The translations under genes and the position numbers were made by a program. The notes beneath the pieces were generated by a model that was not told where the DNA came from, ran no database searches, and saw only the letters and a program-made list of their open reading frames with translations. From NCBI GenBank assembly GCA_945903605.1, contig CAMDOH010000001.1, positions 46,301 through 110,300 of the forward strand: a stretch of 64,000 bases of DNA. Direction: 5' to 3'. Positions 15,128 through 20,014 of this stretch are shown here, piece by piece; position 1 is the first letter of the stretch, and each line of letters starts with the position of its first letter. This DNA is from Akkermansia muciniphila (GTDB lineage Bacteria; Verrucomicrobiota; Verrucomicrobiia; Limisphaerales; UBA1100).

Positions 15128-15610
15128 TTAGTTGGCCGACTCGGCTGTGCGAAAGATGTTGATGATTTCGTCGGGTTTCGTTGCGGAGAGTAATTTTTGG
15201 CGCAGGGCTGTGTCGCGCAAAAGGCGGCTGATGCGTGCGAGGACGGTGAGATGTTGAGAGAGGTCGGGAGCGGCGATGAGGAAGATGAGTTTCACCGCTC
15301 GACCATCGATCGAGTTGAATGCCAATCCGGAATTGTGCCGGCCAAAAATGACGATGGGAGTTTTGAGAATTCCGGGAAGAACATTTCTGGCATGGGGCAG
15401 TGCAACTCCATCGCCGACGCCGGTGGTATGAAGACGTTCGCGATCGAGCACGGCTGAAATGAGGAGATCTCGCTCGCTGGGCTTGTCGGCGAGTTCGGGG
15501 ATGAGATGGGCGAGTTCGCCAATGGCATCATCGCGTGTGGCAGATTGGAGGCTGAGCTGGATGCAAGCGGGTCTTAGAATTTCGGAGAGGCGGACATTTT
15601 CGGCTTTCAT
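15128..15610 (-). CDS. ptsN: PTS EIIA(Ntr)-like regulatory protein
   Basis: LSEILRPACIQLSLQSATRDDAIGEL...HTTGVGDGVALPHAR (EIIA type-2 active-site His). ATG 15610 is preferred over GTG 15670. Confidence 0.8.
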   Translation of the reverse strand: MKAENVRLSEILRPACIQLSLQSATRDDAIGELAHLIPELADKPSERDLLISAVLDRERLHTTGVGDGVALPHARNVLPGILKTPIVIFGRHNSGLAFNSIDGRAVKLIFLIAAPDLSQHLTVLARISRLLRDTALRQKLLSATKPDEIINIFRTAESAN

Positions 15611-15727
15611 GAATTGAACTGTGATGACGGAGCCCATGTCGTTGAGCAACGATAAAATGTGCGTTGACACTGCTGGGGCGCAGCTTCATCGTCCGGCGTC
15701 CAATTCGACGGGGGTTGATTTGGGCAA

Positions 15728-15838
15728 CTCATTGCGAGTGGCTGAGGGACTGGCCCTGTGAAGCCACGGCAACCGATCGGGGATGCGTTCCCGGTGACAG
15801 GTGCTAATTCCAGCTGGACGAGAGTCCGGGAAGATGAG
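15728..15838 (+). promoter_or_regulatory. SAM-I (S-box) riboswitch aptamer
   Basis: P1 CTCAT...ATGAG. Conserved blocks appear in canonical order: GAGGGACTGGCCC, GTGAAGCC, CGGCAACC, AGGTGCTAATTCCAGC. Confidence 0.85.
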
Positions 15839-15857
15839 GTGGTGCGCTGACTGTTTG

Positions 15858-15886
15858 GCCCCGCTCAACTTCAAGCGGGGTTTTTT
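15858..15886 (+). terminator. riboswitch expression-platform intrinsic terminator
   Basis: CCCCGCT-caacttca-AGCGGGG followed by TTTTTT, 20 nt after the aptamer and 27 nt before the ATG at 15913. Confidence 0.8.
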
Positions 15887-15912
15887 ATTACCCCGACAAG
15901 CGCGCGAACGGG

Positions 15913-17181
15913 ATGATTGATATGGAAAAACAAGATGGATTCATGAGGGCGTTGAAGTGTCGCGAATGCGGGCGGGAATATCCGCTGGCAGCGACGCATG
16001 TCTGTGAGTTTGATTTCGGTCCGCTGGAAGTGGCATACGATTATGACCGCGCAAAGAAGTCGATGACCCGGGCAGCGATCGAATCACGACCGCGCACGAT
16101 GTGGCGCTACGCGGAATTGTTGCCGATTGCTGGCGCGCCGACGGTGGGCTTTCAAGTGGGGTTCACGCCGCTGGTCAAAGCGGATCGACTGGCGAAGCGG
16201 CTGGGTATCCGCGAGCTTTGGATCAAAAACGACACGGTGAATTATCCGACACTCTCTTTCAAAGATCGCGTGGTGAGTGTGGCGTTGAGCCGTGCGAAGG
16301 AGCTGGGGTTCAAGGTGGTCGCTTGCGCGTCGACGGGCAATCTCGCCAACTCTGTGGCGGCGAATGCGGCGGCGGCTGGGCTGAAGGCATTTGTTTTCAT
16401 CCCGCATGATCTGGAGCAGGGGAAGGTTTTGAACTCGCTGATTTACGGCGCAAACGTGATTTCCATCAAGGGTCATTACGACGAGGTGAACCGTCTTTGT
16501 GCGGAGATCGCAGGGAAATCCGGTTGGGCATTTGTGAATGTGAACATGCGCCCGTATTACGCGGAGGGATCGAAGTCGATGGGCTTTGAAATTGTGGAGC
16601 AACTCGGCTGGCGGATTCCTCGCCACACGGTTGTCTGCATGGCATCAGGTTCGTTGCTGACAAAGATTCACAAAAGTTATCAGGAACTGGTCAAGTTGGA
16701 TCTGGTGACGGAGACGCCATTCAAAGTGCATGGCGCGCAGGCCACGGGCTGCAATCCCATCACGGCGGCGCAGAAATCCGGGATGGATTTTTTCAAGCCG
16801 GTGAAGCCCGACACGATTGCCAAATCGCTGGCGATCGGCACGCCCGCCGATGGCTTTTATGCGCTGCGTTCGATGAAAGAAACGGGAAGTGCGAGCGATG
16901 ATGTGACGGATGATGAAATCCGCGAAGGGATCAAGTTGCTTGCGGAGACGGAGGGGATTTTTGCGGAGACTGCGGGGGGAGTGACCGTGGGCGTGGCGAA
17001 GAAACTCATTGCCTCGGGCAAGATTCCGGCGGACGATTCGGCGGTGTTGTGCATCACCGGCAACGGGCTCAAGACGCTCGATGCTGTGGCTGGGCACGCT
17101 GGACAAACTCGCGAGATCCGGCCGAGCTTGCGCGAATTTGATAAATTGATGGAAGCCGAACCGCAATTAGCCAACGCATAA
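15913..17181 (+). CDS. threonine-synthase-like PLP enzyme (candidate O-phosphohomoserine sulfhydrylase)
   Basis: 422 aa. PLP-lysine motif YPTLSFKDR, GNLANS, and an N-terminal Cys ribbon KCRECG...HVC. The family call is confident; the substrate and product are inferred from context. Confidence 0.85.
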   Translation: MIDMEKQDGFMRALKCRECGREYPLAATHVCEFDFGPLEVAYDYDRAKKSMTRAAIESRPRTMWRYAELLPIAGAPTVGFQVGFTPLVKADRLAKRLGIRELWIKNDTVNYPTLSFKDRVVSVALSRAKELGFKVVACASTGNLANSVAANAAAAGLKAFVFIPHDLEQGKVLNSLIYGANVISIKGHYDEVNRLCAEIAGKSGWAFVNVNMRPYYAEGSKSMGFEIVEQLGWRIPRHTVVCMASGSLLTKIHKSYQELVKLDLVTETPFKVHGAQATGCNPITAAQKSGMDFFKPVKPDTIAKSLAIGTPADGFYALRSMKETGSASDDVTDDEIREGIKLLAETEGIFAETAGGVTVGVAKKLIASGKIPADDSAVLCITGNGLKTLDAVAGHAGQTREIRPSLREFDKLMEAEPQLANA

Positions 17182-17184
17182 TTT

Positions 17185-17460
17185 ATGGCAGCGAAAGTAC
17201 GTATCCCAACCCCGTTGAGAAAACTGACAAACGATCAGGACACGGTGGAGGTTCCCGCAGGCACCATTGGACAGGCGATCGATGGATTGCAGGCGCAATT
17301 TCCCGGCATCCGCGATCGTTTGCTGGATGAAAAGGGGGACGTTCGCCGATTTGTGAATGTGTACGTGAATGAAGAGGACATCCGTTTTCTGCAGAACAAA
17401 GAGACAGTGGTGAAGGACGGGGACGAGATCAGCATCATCCCCGCGATTGCTGGAGGTTGA
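17185..17460 (+). CDS. CysO/MoaD/ThiS-type ubiquitin-like sulfur carrier ending in Gly-Gly
   Basis: 91 aa. RFVNVYVNEEDIRFL...DGDEISIIPAIAGG, followed immediately by the stop codon. Confidence 0.85.
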   Translation: MAAKVRIPTPLRKLTNDQDTVEVPAGTIGQAIDGLQAQFPGIRDRLLDEKGDVRRFVNVYVNEEDIRFLQNKETVVKDGDEISIIPAIAGG

Positions 17461-17462
17461 AG

Positions 17463-17738
17463 ATGGCAAAAAAGACAACCCAGGCAAAGTTGGCGCCGGT
17501 TTGCCGCCGCGTGTGGCTCATGTATCCACCCAAATTCATTCAGCAACCCATTGTTTGGGAGCTGACGCACAAATTCAATCTGATCACCAACATCCGTCAG
17601 GCGAGTGTCACCGATGAGATCGGAATTGTTTGTCTGGAGTTGAAGGGAGCTGCGAACACGATCCAGAAAGCGATCAAGTGGCTCGAAAGTCGGCGGATCA
17701 AAGTAGAACCGGTTGAAATCAACGTGATCGATTCGTGA
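17463..17738 (+). CDS. stand-alone NIL-domain protein
   Basis: GGAGG lies 6 nt upstream of ATG 17463. VWLMYPPKFIQQPIVWELTHKFNLITNIRQASVTDEIGIVCLELKG...AIKWLESRRIKVEPV resembles the NIL domain found at the C-terminus of MetN. Confidence 0.7.
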   Translation: MAKKTTQAKLAPVCRRVWLMYPPKFIQQPIVWELTHKFNLITNIRQASVTDEIGIVCLELKGAANTIQKAIKWLESRRIKVEPVEINVIDS

Positions 17739-17764: not shown

Positions 17765-18976
17765 ATGAAAATTCTCATCCATCGTGGTGGTCAGCAATTC
17801 GGTCCGTATTCCCTCGATGAGGTTCGCAGTTATCTCGCAGCAGGACAGCTTCAGCCTGCTGATTCTGCATGGCACGAAGGTTTGCCAGACTGGATTCCGC
17901 TGGATCAAATCGCAGGTGTCGCTGGCGCGCCACCGCCGCCTCCACCACCACCGGCCAATTTGTCGCTCCCGCCCGATTCACAGAGCGAATCGAAATACGC
18001 CACCAAGAAATGTCCGCGTTGCCAGCAGATTGTAGATGCCGACGCCATCTTGTGCACCCATTGCGGCACGCACATGGCAAAGGCACAGCAAGATCGAATT
18101 GTTGCCCAACGCAACCTCGAGCCAATCGATGAAGAGACCGCCAAAGACCAGTTCATGATGAGCCTCGGCGCGCTGCTGCTCTTCGGTTGTCTGGTGCCGA
18201 TTTACAATGGGATCAATTGGGATTGGTATCCCAATTTTCATTTTAAAGGAGCGAAGTGGCAATCTGTGTTCATGGGAGTTTGGCCCGGATTAGTCGGTAT
18301 TTTTCTCCTCAGCTCTTGCCAATCGATTCGAGCGCCTGTTCGCAGCGGAATTTTACTTGGAGTCGGTGCACTGTGGTTCATCGTGAATCTGACAGGGAAT
18401 ACCGATGCTGCCGTTGCGGGATTATCGCCGTTGTCGATTATGGCCGGTTCCAATTTGTCCGGCTTTTGCATGGGAGTGGGATGGGTGTGTCTGATTTTCG
18501 GTGCGGGGACGCGCTACTTTCTGCCCGCGAGCAAGCCCGCTTGTATTCTGGCGATGGTCGGTGGTGGGCTCATTGTCTTGGCGTGGGTGTTGCCGCAAAA
18601 TGGAAAGGTTCCGCTGGGCGAAGTTTTCAGTTCGTTCAAAGTGTTAAAAAACGTGGGTGATAATTGGCGGGTATTGTTCATCCCACTCATAGCGGTGACG
18701 AGTGTTGGAATGCAAATCGGTGCGGCGACCTTGTGTTTTGTTAACACACCCAGTCGCGCGCTGGGAATCATCACAGGCCACTCCGCGTTGGCGGTGAAGC
18801 TGCTCATCGGCAACGTGGCAGTTCTGCTTGTGCTGTCTGGATTTGCAGGAGCTGATTTATCCGCAAAGTCCATTTACGGATTGTTGATTTTGGCGAAAGG
18901 AGCAGCGCTGTCTGGACTGACTTTATTATTGCCTTTGGGTGCGATTGACTTGATGGTTGGCAACGCGAGGAGGTAG
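17765..18976 (+). CDS. GYF_2 (DUF4339) domain / zinc-ribbon / polytopic membrane protein
   Basis: N-terminal MKILIHRGGQQFGPYSLDEVRSYLAAGQLQPADSAWHEGLPDWIPLDQI, then a P8 linker, CPRCQ...CTHCG, and about 8 predicted TM helices. Confidence 0.8.
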   Translation: MKILIHRGGQQFGPYSLDEVRSYLAAGQLQPADSAWHEGLPDWIPLDQIAGVAGAPPPPPPPPANLSLPPDSQSESKYATKKCPRCQQIVDADAILCTHCGTHMAKAQQDRIVAQRNLEPIDEETAKDQFMMSLGALLLFGCLVPIYNGINWDWYPNFHFKGAKWQSVFMGVWPGLVGIFLLSSCQSIRAPVRSGILLGVGALWFIVNLTGNTDAAVAGLSPLSIMAGSNLSGFCMGVGWVCLIFGAGTRYFLPASKPACILAMVGGGLIVLAWVLPQNGKVPLGEVFSSFKVLKNVGDNWRVLFIPLIAVTSVGMQIGAATLCFVNTPSRALGIITGHSALAVKLLIGNVAVLLVLSGFAGADLSAKSIYGLLILAKGAALSGLTLLLPLGAIDLMVGNARR

Positions 18977-19000: not shown

Positions 19001-20014
19001 ATGCAAATTCACATCAACAGGGCTGGACAAGCATACGGCCCCTACGAATTCGACTCGGTAAAGGACTACTTCGCCAAGGGGCAATTGTTACCGGATGACA
19101 TGGCTTGGCATGAAGGCTTGGCCGAGTGGATTCCATTGAAGAATTTAATTGATGGCGCGCAAGCGGCACCGGAGCCAGTGGCCGCGCCAGTCGGTAACTC
19201 CTGTCCAAAATGTCAGGCAGCCATCGAGCCGGATCAAGTCGTCTGCATGGGCTGTGGCAATATCTTATCTGGTGCGGCTCCAGCCAAAACTGGTTATTCG
19301 CCCGCGTCACCCGGTGGCAAGTTGCCAATCGTTGGTTGCATCAAACGGGGTTGGCAAGTGCTTCGTGGATCCATGGGCAGCATGATTTTGTTTACAGTTA
19401 TAGGTTACTTGATCGTGGCAATCGGTTGCGTAATCCCGTTGGTGAATTTACTCGCATCGGGTCCTCTAATGGCGGGATTCATTTACTTCTTCATCCTGAA
19501 AGTACGAGGCGAAGAAGCAGAGATAGGCGTGATCTTTTCAGGGTTCAAAAGAAATTTTGTCCAATTGATGCTGGCAGGAATTGTTCCGGGACTTTTGATC
19601 GGAGCGATTGCCATTCCCGGTATGGCCGTTTTATTTGGGACACTCATTGGAGGAATCGGGATTCCTGCAATCGAAGCTTTAGCTCAAGGCACAATACCCA
19701 GCATCAGTTGGCTGTCCATCGTCGGCGTAGTTGTGGGTTTTCTGCTCATCATCGTTCCCTGCTATTATTTTGGCCTATGCTGGATGTTCACGTTGCCGCT
19801 CACCATCGATCGGCAGATGGGTTTTTGGGATGCGATGAAAGCGAGCCGCGCTGCCGTTCGCGGCAACTGGTGGCGACTGTTGTTCTTCATGATCGTAATC
19901 GGAATTTTGGGTGAACTTGGTGTCATCGGGTTATGTATCGGTCTCTTCATCACCATCCCGTGGATGCTCACCTCAATGGCCTGCGCCTACGAACACCTCG
20001 CTGGCAACGGCTAA
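19001..20014 (+). CDS. GYF_2 (DUF4339) domain / zinc-ribbon / DUF975-like membrane protein
   Basis: N-terminal MQIHINRAGQAYGPYEFDSVKDYFAKGQLLPDDMAWHEGLAEWIPLKNLI, then CPKCQ...CMGCG, and a membrane domain with GPLMAGFIYFFILKVRGEEAEIGVIFSGFKRNF. Confidence 0.8.
   Translation: MQIHINRAGQAYGPYEFDSVKDYFAKGQLLPDDMAWHEGLAEWIPLKNLIDGAQAAPEPVAAPVGNSCPKCQAAIEPDQVVCMGCGNILSGAAPAKTGYSPASPGGKLPIVGCIKRGWQVLRGSMGSMILFTVIGYLIVAIGCVIPLVNLLASGPLMAGFIYFFILKVRGEEAEIGVIFSGFKRNFVQLMLAGIVPGLLIGAIAIPGMAVLFGTLIGGIGIPAIEALAQGTIPSISWLSIVGVVVGFLLIIVPCYYFGLCWMFTLPLTIDRQMGFWDAMKASRAAVRGNWWRLLFFMIVIGILGELGVIGLCIGLFITIPWMLTSMACAYEHLAGNG

Follow-up and report, generated by a model that had tools for sequence, protein, structure and literature searches.

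A probable S-adenosylmethionine-controlled operon of the MetM/MetO type, with a conserved NIL-domain gene, in the Verrucomicrobiota

A 64,000-nucleotide (nt) stretch of DNA from a Limisphaerales/Pedosphaera-like member of the Verrucomicrobiota (GenBank assembly GCA_945903605.1, contig CAMDOH010000001.1, positions 46,301 to 110,300), referred to throughout as the window, carries what is in all probability a three-gene, S-adenosylmethionine (SAM)-controlled operon for methionine biosynthesis, in which homocysteine is made by a protein-thiocarboxylate route of the MetM/MetO type. The operon comprises a metM-like gene for an enzyme of the threonine synthase (ThrC) family, a metO-like gene for a small sulfur carrier and a stand-alone gene for a NIL-domain protein; gene families, gene order, the riboswitch and terminator that precede the genes, synteny among related loci and the phylogenetic split of the enzyme from ThrC are established here. 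An original prediction for this DNA had read the first two genes as a SAM-regulated pair that makes homocysteine from O-phosphohomoserine and a thiocarboxylated carrier. That reading is supported by the riboswitch, by the linkage of enzyme and carrier and by the placement of the enzyme outside the ThrC clade, and the third cistron is a gene that the prediction overlooked. Our analysis also supports the assignment of the enzyme-carrier pair to a pathway type published in 2024, the core of which would therefore already be known; the operon is this known MetM/MetO core with a conserved third gene as its new element. Its features are as follows.

15726-15840, + strand: SAM-I riboswitch aptamer (S-box); Rfam RF00162, 79.6 bits against a gathering threshold of 44.4, E=4.3e-17, full-length model match 1-108
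15857-15890, + strand: predicted intrinsic terminator, taken as the riboswitch expression platform; hairpin followed by a T-run
15913-17181, + strand: metM-like gene, 422 amino acids (aa), ThrC-family enzyme dependent on pyridoxal phosphate (PLP), with an N-terminal zinc ribbon; open reading frame (ORF), PALP
17185-17460, + strand: metO-like gene, 91 aa, CysO-type ThiS/MoaD beta-grasp carrier with C-terminal Gly-Gly; ORF, PF02597
17451-17455, + strand: GGAGG, candidate ribosome-binding site for the NIL gene, read from the sequence
17463-17738, + strand: stand-alone NIL-domain gene, 91 aa, third cistron; ORF, PF09383

The SAM control that had been claimed for the pair is borne out by an aptamer lying outside the interval that the original prediction covered (15913-17460). 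The aptamer scores above the gathering threshold and is followed by an expression platform, and on both grounds the element is a SAM-I riboswitch. The terminator, which begins 17 nt past the aptamer and ends about 23 nt ahead of the metM-like start codon, has a 9-bp stem, 6 pairs of which are GC (GGCCCCGCT...AGCGGGGTT), and then the run TTTTATT; judged by the usual SAM-I architecture, it probably acts as an attenuator that switches the genes off when SAM is bound. A SAM riboswitch in this position points to methionine metabolism and not to threonine. The three genes are closely packed. Enzyme and carrier genes are separated by 3 nt (TAA ttt ATG), a trivial correction to the 4 nt first given, and carrier and NIL genes by 2 nt (gct GGA GGT TGA ag ATG). 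The Gly-Gly codons of the carrier (GGA GGT) spell GGAGG 7 nt upstream of the NIL ATG, which suggests translational coupling, with these codons probably doubling as the ribosome-binding site; the NIL frame has an alternative start, TTG, at 17457. Read-through of the stop codon between carrier and NIL is ruled out in the window, the two genes being in different reading frames.

The enzyme and the carrier are as first described. The 422-aa ORF contains the YPTLSFKDR and KCRECG...HVC motifs as well as NYPTLSFKDRVV, and matches the Pfam PALP model with E=8.5e-68. Alignment with solved ThrC structures places the Schiff-base lysine at K117, within SFKDR, and the protein is assigned from its sequence to the ThrC family of fold-type II PLP enzymes. 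Solved ThrC proteins (Bacillus subtilis 6CGQ, Aquifex 2ZSJ, Thermus thermophilus 1UIM, and Mycobacterium tuberculosis 2D1F) align to residues ~59 to 398 only, with E ~1e-50; the first ~60 residues, a zinc-ribbon domain, have no counterpart among solved structures. The carrier ends ...IIPAIAGG (codons GCT GGA GGT TGA) and matches PF02597 (ThiS) with 62.4 bits and E=6.2e-17. Since it ends at Gly-Gly, no trimming would be needed, as had been foreseen. Among solved structures it is closest to M. tuberculosis CysO (3DWG_C, E=1.1e-20) and to the carrier in 4N6E_B (E=5e-20), in alignments that span residue 1-3 to the terminal Gly-Gly, and the protein is best placed in the ThiS/MoaD/CysO beta-grasp class, with a C terminus that would be open to adenylation. 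The resemblance to CysO/MoaD-type carriers that was first noted holds for CysO and falls short for MoaD, for which the score is 24.5 against a cut-off of 66.15 (TIGR01682). A ThiS identity is likewise rejected (TIGR01683, 19.9 against 37.45), and neither moaE nor thiG was present in the Pfam-annotated gene lists of the window.

The gene order was compared among 80 loci from species-representative genomes of about 10 phyla, whose enzymes are 56 to 83% identical to that of the window; neighbor families were confirmed with Pfam, upstream riboswitch-like elements were sought by nhmmer, and individual loci are cited by their L numbers. The recurring elements were as follows.

Carrier gene immediately downstream of the enzyme gene: 74 of 80 loci
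Carrier ending exactly at Gly-Gly: 53 of 80
Carrier with a short tail or other extension after Gly-Gly: 14 of 80
Carrier fused to a NIL domain: 7 of 80
SAM-I-like element directly upstream (nhmmer): 30 of 80
ThiF-type activating enzyme (E1) within 6 kb: 18 of 80
Prok-JAB (JAMM) gene within 6 kb: 11 of 80
CysM-like enzyme gene within 6 kb: 20 of 80

Recurrence of the enzyme-carrier order in so many loci, across many phyla, shows that it is not due to chance. The accompanying genes differ by lineage. Loci of the Verrucomicrobiota consist of riboswitch, enzyme, carrier (sometimes two carrier genes) and NIL, never with an E1 or JAMM gene nearby; those of the Nitrospirota run CysM, E1, enzyme, carrier, NIL, E1, JAMM or, alternatively, enzyme, carrier, NIL, ThrC; the Thermodesulfobacteriota and some others have enzyme, carrier-NIL fusion, E1, CysM and JAMM; and in the Cyanobacteria the enzyme and carrier genes stand alone. 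Genes for TusA and Rrf2 recur in a few loci, the Rrf2 regulator gene lying inside the cluster in four. Ten loci that were negative by nhmmer contained no SAM or other riboswitch by Rfam, and riboswitch control is therefore lineage specific. Where two tandem carrier genes lie between enzyme and NIL (L010 8030-8599, L016 9281-9898, and L018 4437-5044), both carriers end at Gly-Gly.

The separation of the enzyme from canonical ThrC was examined in a neighbor-joining tree of relatives from the 80 loci and more distant representatives, with CysM-like proteins as outgroups. ThrC of B. subtilis and Aquifex and four ThrC genes from the same loci as the MetM-like genes form a canonical clade with 100% bootstrap support. 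The window enzyme falls outside this clade and clusters with 21 proteins linked to a carrier or riboswitch, those of Micromonospora and Micromonosporaceae among them, in a MetM-like clade whose bootstrap value is 88% once further zinc-ribbon relatives are included. Within the MetM-like clade its identities are 55 to 84% (58 to 59% for cyanobacterial orthologues), compared with 35 to 37% to canonical ThrC and 21 to 22% to the CysM-like neighbors of related loci. The TIGR00260 threonine synthase model does not separate the two clades. A cysteate synthase identity was considered and rejected (TIGR03844, 66.7 bits against a cut-off of 324.9). The fourth ligand of the zinc ribbon also varies among lineages: it is Asp in the Verrucomicrobiota (CEFDFGP) and Cys in the Kiritimatiellae and all other phyla examined (CEFCFGP), as noted at residue 34 of the window enzyme and in L010, L022, and L025, and the pattern CxxC...CxxC is found in at least 90% of the family.

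The two clades agree at 72 conserved positions, which include the SFKDR lysine and the ASTGN loop, and differ at a further 35 that are conserved within each clade; at every one of the latter, the window enzyme has the MetM-like state. The most conspicuous differences, with the MetM-like form given first, are SFKDRVV versus SFKDRGM, ASTGNLAN versus ASTGNTSA, N-x-N-x-RPYYAEGSK versus N-S-x-NPYRxEGQK, AKSLAIGxPADG versus ATAIRIGNPASW (the ATAIRIG form in ThrC), AETAGGVT versus CEPASAAS, and GLKT versus GLKD; an 8-residue insertion at 287-294 also marks the MetM-like clade. At each of the ThrC-specific sites (SFKDRGM, NPYRxEGQK, ATAIRIGNPASW, CEPASAAS, and GLKD), the window enzyme has the alternative residue and, being outside the ThrC clade as well, it does not class as a canonical ThrC. 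The arginine of the ThrC NPYR motif is replaced by a tyrosine (Y216), and a new arginine, R213, is found three residues upstream in the window sequence; the arginine and tryptophan of ThrC within ATAIRIGNPASW are absent from the MetM-like clade. We speculate that these clade-specific replacements may remodel the handling of phosphate and open the active site to the carrier tail. The two kinds of enzyme coexist in several organisms: a canonical ThrC gene lies directly after the cluster in L032, L039, and L052 and ~6 kb downstream in L073, and the chromosome of Nonomuraea gerenzanensis carries a MetM-like gene alongside a canonical ThrC that shares 60% identity with Aquifex ThrC. That chromosome (NZ_LT559118.1, L092; 11.85 Mb) is filed as a plasmid and is nearly unannotated; its canonical thrC is located at 2.50 Mb and its metM-like gene at 11.81 Mb.

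The route through a ThrC homologue and a sulfur carrier that the original prediction mentioned for Streptomyces does exist: it is that of MetM (the ThrC homologue) and MetO (the sulfur carrier) of Streptomyces albulus, attributed to Hasebe et al. 2024 (Appl Environ Microbiol 90:e01247-24) in three citing papers (bioRxiv 10.1101/2024.10.14.618325, PMC12172450, and bioRxiv 10.64898/2026.09.15.751699), through whose summaries it is known here. As summarized for GapMind in 2026, the pathway steps are MetO (sulfur carrier), Mec (hydrolase), MoeZ (ligase), and MetM, with MetO a required step and MetM termed MetO-thiocarboxylate dependent (bioRxiv 10.1101/2024.10.14.618325). A SAM riboswitch upstream of S. 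albulus metM is mentioned in PMC12172450, and B. subtilis ThrC is 33% identical to MetM (bioRxiv 10.64898/2026.09.15.751699). A search for the Streptomyces MetM by way of the Micromonosporaceae homologue gave, among the matches listed, Micromonosporaceae or unnamed metagenomic proteins; a tblastn search of a plasmid collection found Nonomuraea and distant haloarchaeal thrC genes only. In Micromonospora coriariae, a SAM-I riboswitch (Rfam, 69.2 bits) lies directly upstream of the MetM-like homologue, and in N. gerenzanensis the order is SAM-I riboswitch (Rfam, 68.7 bits), MetM-like gene, and a 91-aa carrier ending AVAGG. The window enzyme is 55% identical to its Nonomuraea counterpart over 403 residues and the carrier 48% identical over all 91. 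This layout matches the published description of S. albulus, and so the window operon is best read as a verrucomicrobial metM-metO operon. It shares with MetM/MetO, as the latter are described by the citing papers, a ThrC-homologous enzyme, a ThiS/MoaD-type carrier, an upstream SAM riboswitch and O-phosphohomoserine as the proposed substrate. It differs from the S. albulus and other actinomycete systems in its phylum, in having a NIL cistron, which is absent from the actinomycete loci examined, in the use of Asp and not Cys as the fourth ribbon ligand, and in that the MoeZ-type E1 and Mec-type hydrolase are unlinked in the window.

Two better-known systems work on similar principles. CysM of M. 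tuberculosis condenses thiocarboxylated CysO with O-phosphoserine, and the window operon shares with the CysM/CysO/Mec system (3DWG) a CysO-like carrier ending in Gly-Gly and the logic of a PLP enzyme acting on a phosphorylated hydroxy-amino acid and a protein thiocarboxylate; the related clusters of the Nitrospirota and Thermodesulfobacteriota resemble that system further in holding CysM-like, E1 and JAMM genes. Unlike CysM, the window enzyme is of the ThrC type with a zinc ribbon, would be expected to convert O-phosphohomoserine to homocysteine and is controlled by a SAM riboswitch. In the HcyS/HcyF/HcyD/MetY system of Wolinella succinogenes, the thiocarboxylate of a ThiS-like carrier donates sulfur for homocysteine, the enzyme being a fold-type I protein of the MetY type that acts on O-acetylhomoserine and the carrier requiring proteolytic trimming. 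By contrast, the window enzyme is of the ThrC type, its carrier already ends in Gly-Gly and the window contains no Cys_Met_Meta_PP enzyme. With canonical ThrC (6CGQ, 2ZSJ, and 1UIM) the enzyme shares the fold, the SFKDR lysine motif and the ASTGN loop, and probably also O-phosphohomoserine as substrate; it differs in its additional zinc ribbon of ~60 residues, its SAM control and its linkage to a carrier gene. The Wolinella route is mentioned in PMC5764234 as "the protein thiocarboxylate pathway."

From these arrangements, we infer every chemical step in this organism, together with the role of the NIL protein, as follows. When SAM is plentiful, it would bind the aptamer, the terminator would form and transcription would halt before the genes; when SAM is scarce, read-through would allow the operon to be transcribed. 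A ThiF/MoeZ-type E1 encoded elsewhere would adenylate the carrier and convert it to the C-terminal thiocarboxylate. The ThrC-like enzyme would bind O-phospho-L-homoserine on PLP at Lys117 and eliminate phosphate, and the carrier thiocarboxylate would then attack C-gamma, in place of the addition of water at C-beta that is carried out by threonine synthase. The acyl adduct would be resolved, probably through an S-to-N acyl shift and the action of an unlinked JAMM/Mec-type hydrolase, to yield L-homocysteine and the regenerated carrier; JAMM-assisted release is modeled on the CysM/CysO/Mec and HcyS systems. The NIL protein would most likely bind a small ligand, methionine or homocysteine, associate with the carrier and regulate or assist the reaction.

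Several observations weigh against a role in homocysteine synthesis. The enzyme scores 274.8 bits against the cut-off of 167.1 of the NCBIfam threonine synthase model TIGR00260, public databases name all of its relatives threonine synthase, and the strict MetM-like clade has a bootstrap value of just 68%. Its zinc ribbon is formed by C16, C19, C31, and D34, the fourth cysteine having been replaced by Asp in this lineage. The likeness to S. albulus MetM/MetO is drawn from the descriptions in citing papers and from actinomycete proxies. The Pfam gene lists of the window and ~10 kb past each of its ends (~84 kb) contain no ThiF/MoeB E1, in agreement with what was first noted for the window. Genes for a JAMM hydrolase and a homoserine kinase are missing there too, as is a second thrC. 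Loci of the Verrucomicrobiota as a rule have neither an E1 nor a JAMM gene nearby, and the lack of both here therefore does not count against the pathway. Nor do these ~84 kb contain another PALP enzyme, a Cys_Met_Meta_PP enzyme, a homoserine acyltransferase or metX/metY. Finally, a Microcystis orthologue adjoining a MetO-like gene, and 51.6% identical to MetM, was reported to have both threonine synthase and threonine deaminase activity in vitro and did not raise methionine in vivo (PMC12172450).

An ordinary threonine synthase, adjacent only incidentally to a carrier that serves molybdopterin, thiamine or tRNA thiolation, would account for the TIGR00260 score, for a score near the cut-off of another model named threonine synthase (PRK08197, 283 bits against 303), for the uniform public annotation of the relatives and for the lack of a second thrC in the ~84 kb. 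We nevertheless regard it as quite improbable: the gene is preceded by a SAM riboswitch and not by threonine-responsive control, the enzyme lies outside a ThrC clade with full bootstrap support and differs from it at all 35 clade-discriminating positions, and canonical ThrC coexists with the MetM-like family in L032, L039, L052, L073, and Nonomuraea. The carrier, for its part, is below the MoaD and ThiS cut-offs and nearest to CysO, with no moaE or thiG in the window, and the order of the two genes is retained in 74 of the 80 loci. It is just as doubtful that the protein is a ThrC-like enzyme with a different or moonlighting activity, such as threonine deamination or weak threonine synthesis, and no dedicated homocysteine synthase. 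The Microcystis protein, which turned threonine into 2-oxobutyrate in vitro without a rise in methionine, speaks for this possibility (PMC12172450), as does the closeness of the cyanobacterial orthologues to the window enzyme; however, the cyanobacterial genes have no SAM riboswitch, whereas the window gene does, the Microcystis assays used sulfide and not a thiocarboxylated carrier (PMC12172450), and the E1, JAMM and CysM-like genes linked to the family in other phyla are indicative of sulfur-carrier chemistry.

The enzyme might also be an O-phosphohomoserine sulfhydrylase that uses free sulfide, with the carrier and NIL proteins as accessory or unrelated components. No adjacent carrier gene was found in L012, L036, L041, L047, L086, or Micromonospora, and none of the Verrucomicrobiota loci has an E1 nearby, both of which would fit such an enzyme; the carrier gene is nevertheless immediately downstream in the great majority of loci, several of the exceptions lie on short contigs, and the GapMind summary treats MetO as a required step and MetM as dependent on its thiocarboxylate (bioRxiv 10.1101/2024.10.14.618325), so that we think this explanation, too, has little chance of being correct. 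The least probable alternative is that the pair makes cysteine or another thiol, in the manner of M. tuberculosis CysM/CysO acting on O-phosphoserine, for although CysO is the closest solved relative of the carrier and the CysM-like genes in 20 of the 80 clusters imply that the carrier may also serve cysteine synthesis in those organisms, the enzyme is of the ThrC type and only distantly similar to the CysM-like neighbors (21 to 22%), it retains the residues shared with O-phosphohomoserine-using enzymes, its SAM control points to the methionine branch, and the CysM-like genes are additional to the MetM-like enzyme and do not substitute for it.

With the operon read as a MetM/MetO-type system, the NIL protein is the new component: no link of NIL to MetM/MetO or to ThiS-type carriers was found in the literature searched. 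The protein scores 44.4 bits for PF09383 against a cut-off of 24 and has weak similarity (3DHX, E=5e-4) to the C2 domain with which Escherichia coli MetN binds methionine. A NIL gene is present in 37 of the 80 loci and, in all but one of these (36 of 80), follows the carrier in the same orientation. These loci belong to at least eight phylum-level groups, including the Verrucomicrobiota, Nitrospirota, Thermodesulfobacteriota, Methylomirabilota, Planctomycetota (Planctomycetia and Phycisphaerae), Chloroflexi, Actinomycetota, and unclassified bacteria. Its relatives number at least 4,725 clusters; those that a source has named are called "methionine transport ATPase subunit," "L-aspartate semialdehyde sulfurtransferase ferredoxin," "ferredoxin," or "hypothetical." Identity as a MetN importer is rejected, the 91-aa protein having no ABC ATPase and scoring 20 bits for TIGR02314 against a cut-off of 499.7. 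NIL-ferredoxin proteins (MA1822 and DvMF_0262) belong to the DUF39 homocysteine pathway, which is unrelated (PMC5764234); an identity of this type is also rejected, there being no ferredoxin domain, no conserved cysteine and no DUF39 gene in the window. With MetN and the NIL domains of the DUF39 pathway, the window protein shares PF09383 and a methionine or homocysteine context, and it differs from both in being a stand-alone protein of ~90 residues whose gene is linked to that of a ThiS-type carrier, with fusion of the two in some phyla.

In seven independent loci of other phyla (L029, L030, L031, L033, L037, L038, and L043), carrier and NIL domain form a single ORF of 171 to 190 aa, in the order ...IIPAIAGG, linker and NIL domain, collinear with the two genes of the window; the linker is of 5 to 9 residues and lysine rich in six loci and is longer in L033. 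Carriers of the ThiS type require the carboxylate of Gly-Gly to be free, so that the fusions imply cleavage after Gly-Gly, and a JAMM gene is found near six of the seven. Parallels for such cleavage exist in the trimming of HcyS and QbsE and in the processing of ubiquitin-fusion precursors. A different fusion occurs in a metagenome-assembled genome of the Actinomycetota (L074 9229-10296), where the carrier is joined after Gly-Gly to a ThiF/MoeB-type E1, for a total of 355 aa, with a separate NIL gene following and JAMM and CysM-like genes upstream. Short tails of 1 to 7 residues after Gly-Gly (e.g., GGSC, GGAFIM, and GGTSCRM) were also observed in carriers of the Nitrospirota and several other groups (L032, L035, L039, L042, L044, L045, L052, L055, L061, L065, L066, L084, and L085); these carriers would need trimming, and the tails may be remnants of fusion linkers.

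An alignment of NIL relatives contains no conserved cysteine, and a role for the protein in persulfide relay is rejected on that account. The family motif vvTNiR-A (TNIR in the window) aligns with NNIISA (NNII) of E. coli MetN, and its conserved asparagine aligns with MetN N295, the residue altered in the 6CVL variant, which we take to be MetN N295A, a mutant that loses trans-inhibition by methionine. The lack of a conserved cysteine and the alignment of this asparagine with MetN together favor, with low confidence, binding of a ligand (methionine or homocysteine) or a regulatory role over sulfur relay. Beyond this, we raise the tentative possibility that NIL is an undescribed integral component of MetM/MetO systems in many phyla, that the fused carriers, those joined to NIL in seven loci and the analogous carrier-E1 protein of L074, are ubiquitin-like precursors cut by JAMM, and that NIL senses methionine or homocysteine and gates the maturation of the carrier or the activity of MetM; we consider this proposal less likely than not to hold.

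Proteins identical to those of the operon are encoded on metagenome contigs and in assembly GCA_945872925.1 (128-kb contig CAMCBG010000003.1), and close relatives with 84 to 88% identity come from Verrucomicrobiota of the Pedosphaera/Limisphaerales type. The flanking genes, which are unrelated to the operon, are as follows.

15128-15670, - strand: phosphotransferase system (PTS) EIIA-2 (PtsN-like) gene, divergent from the riboswitch promoter region, with no evident operon link
17765-18976 and 19001-20014, + strand: two tandem paralogous genes, each coding for a zinc ribbon and a multi-pass membrane region in addition to an N-terminal GYF_2 domain

The interval from the NIL gene to the GYF_2 genes showed no terminator, and the GYF_2 genes are not conserved beside the operon in related loci. 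A gene for a SulP-family sulfate permease with a STAS domain lies ~0.5 to 2.2 kb before position 1 of the window (L090 10995-12695), ~16 to 18 kb from the operon.

The enzyme and thousands of its close relatives are annotated as threonine synthase, and a MetM-type reading would alter predictions of methionine prototrophy for the Verrucomicrobiota, Nitrospirota, Planctomycetota, Cyanobacteria, and other groups; the zinc ribbon and the 35 discriminating positions could serve in practice to distinguish MetM from ThrC. A pathway so far shown only in Streptomyces would thereby be extended to abundant uncultured lineages of soil and freshwater. For the enzyme-carrier pair the result is useful for reannotation and unsurprising, and the modest interest that remains attaches to the NIL partner and the carrier fusions, which suggest an uncharacterized regulatory or maturation step and, in the case of NIL, a unifying role across three unrelated methionine/homocysteine systems.

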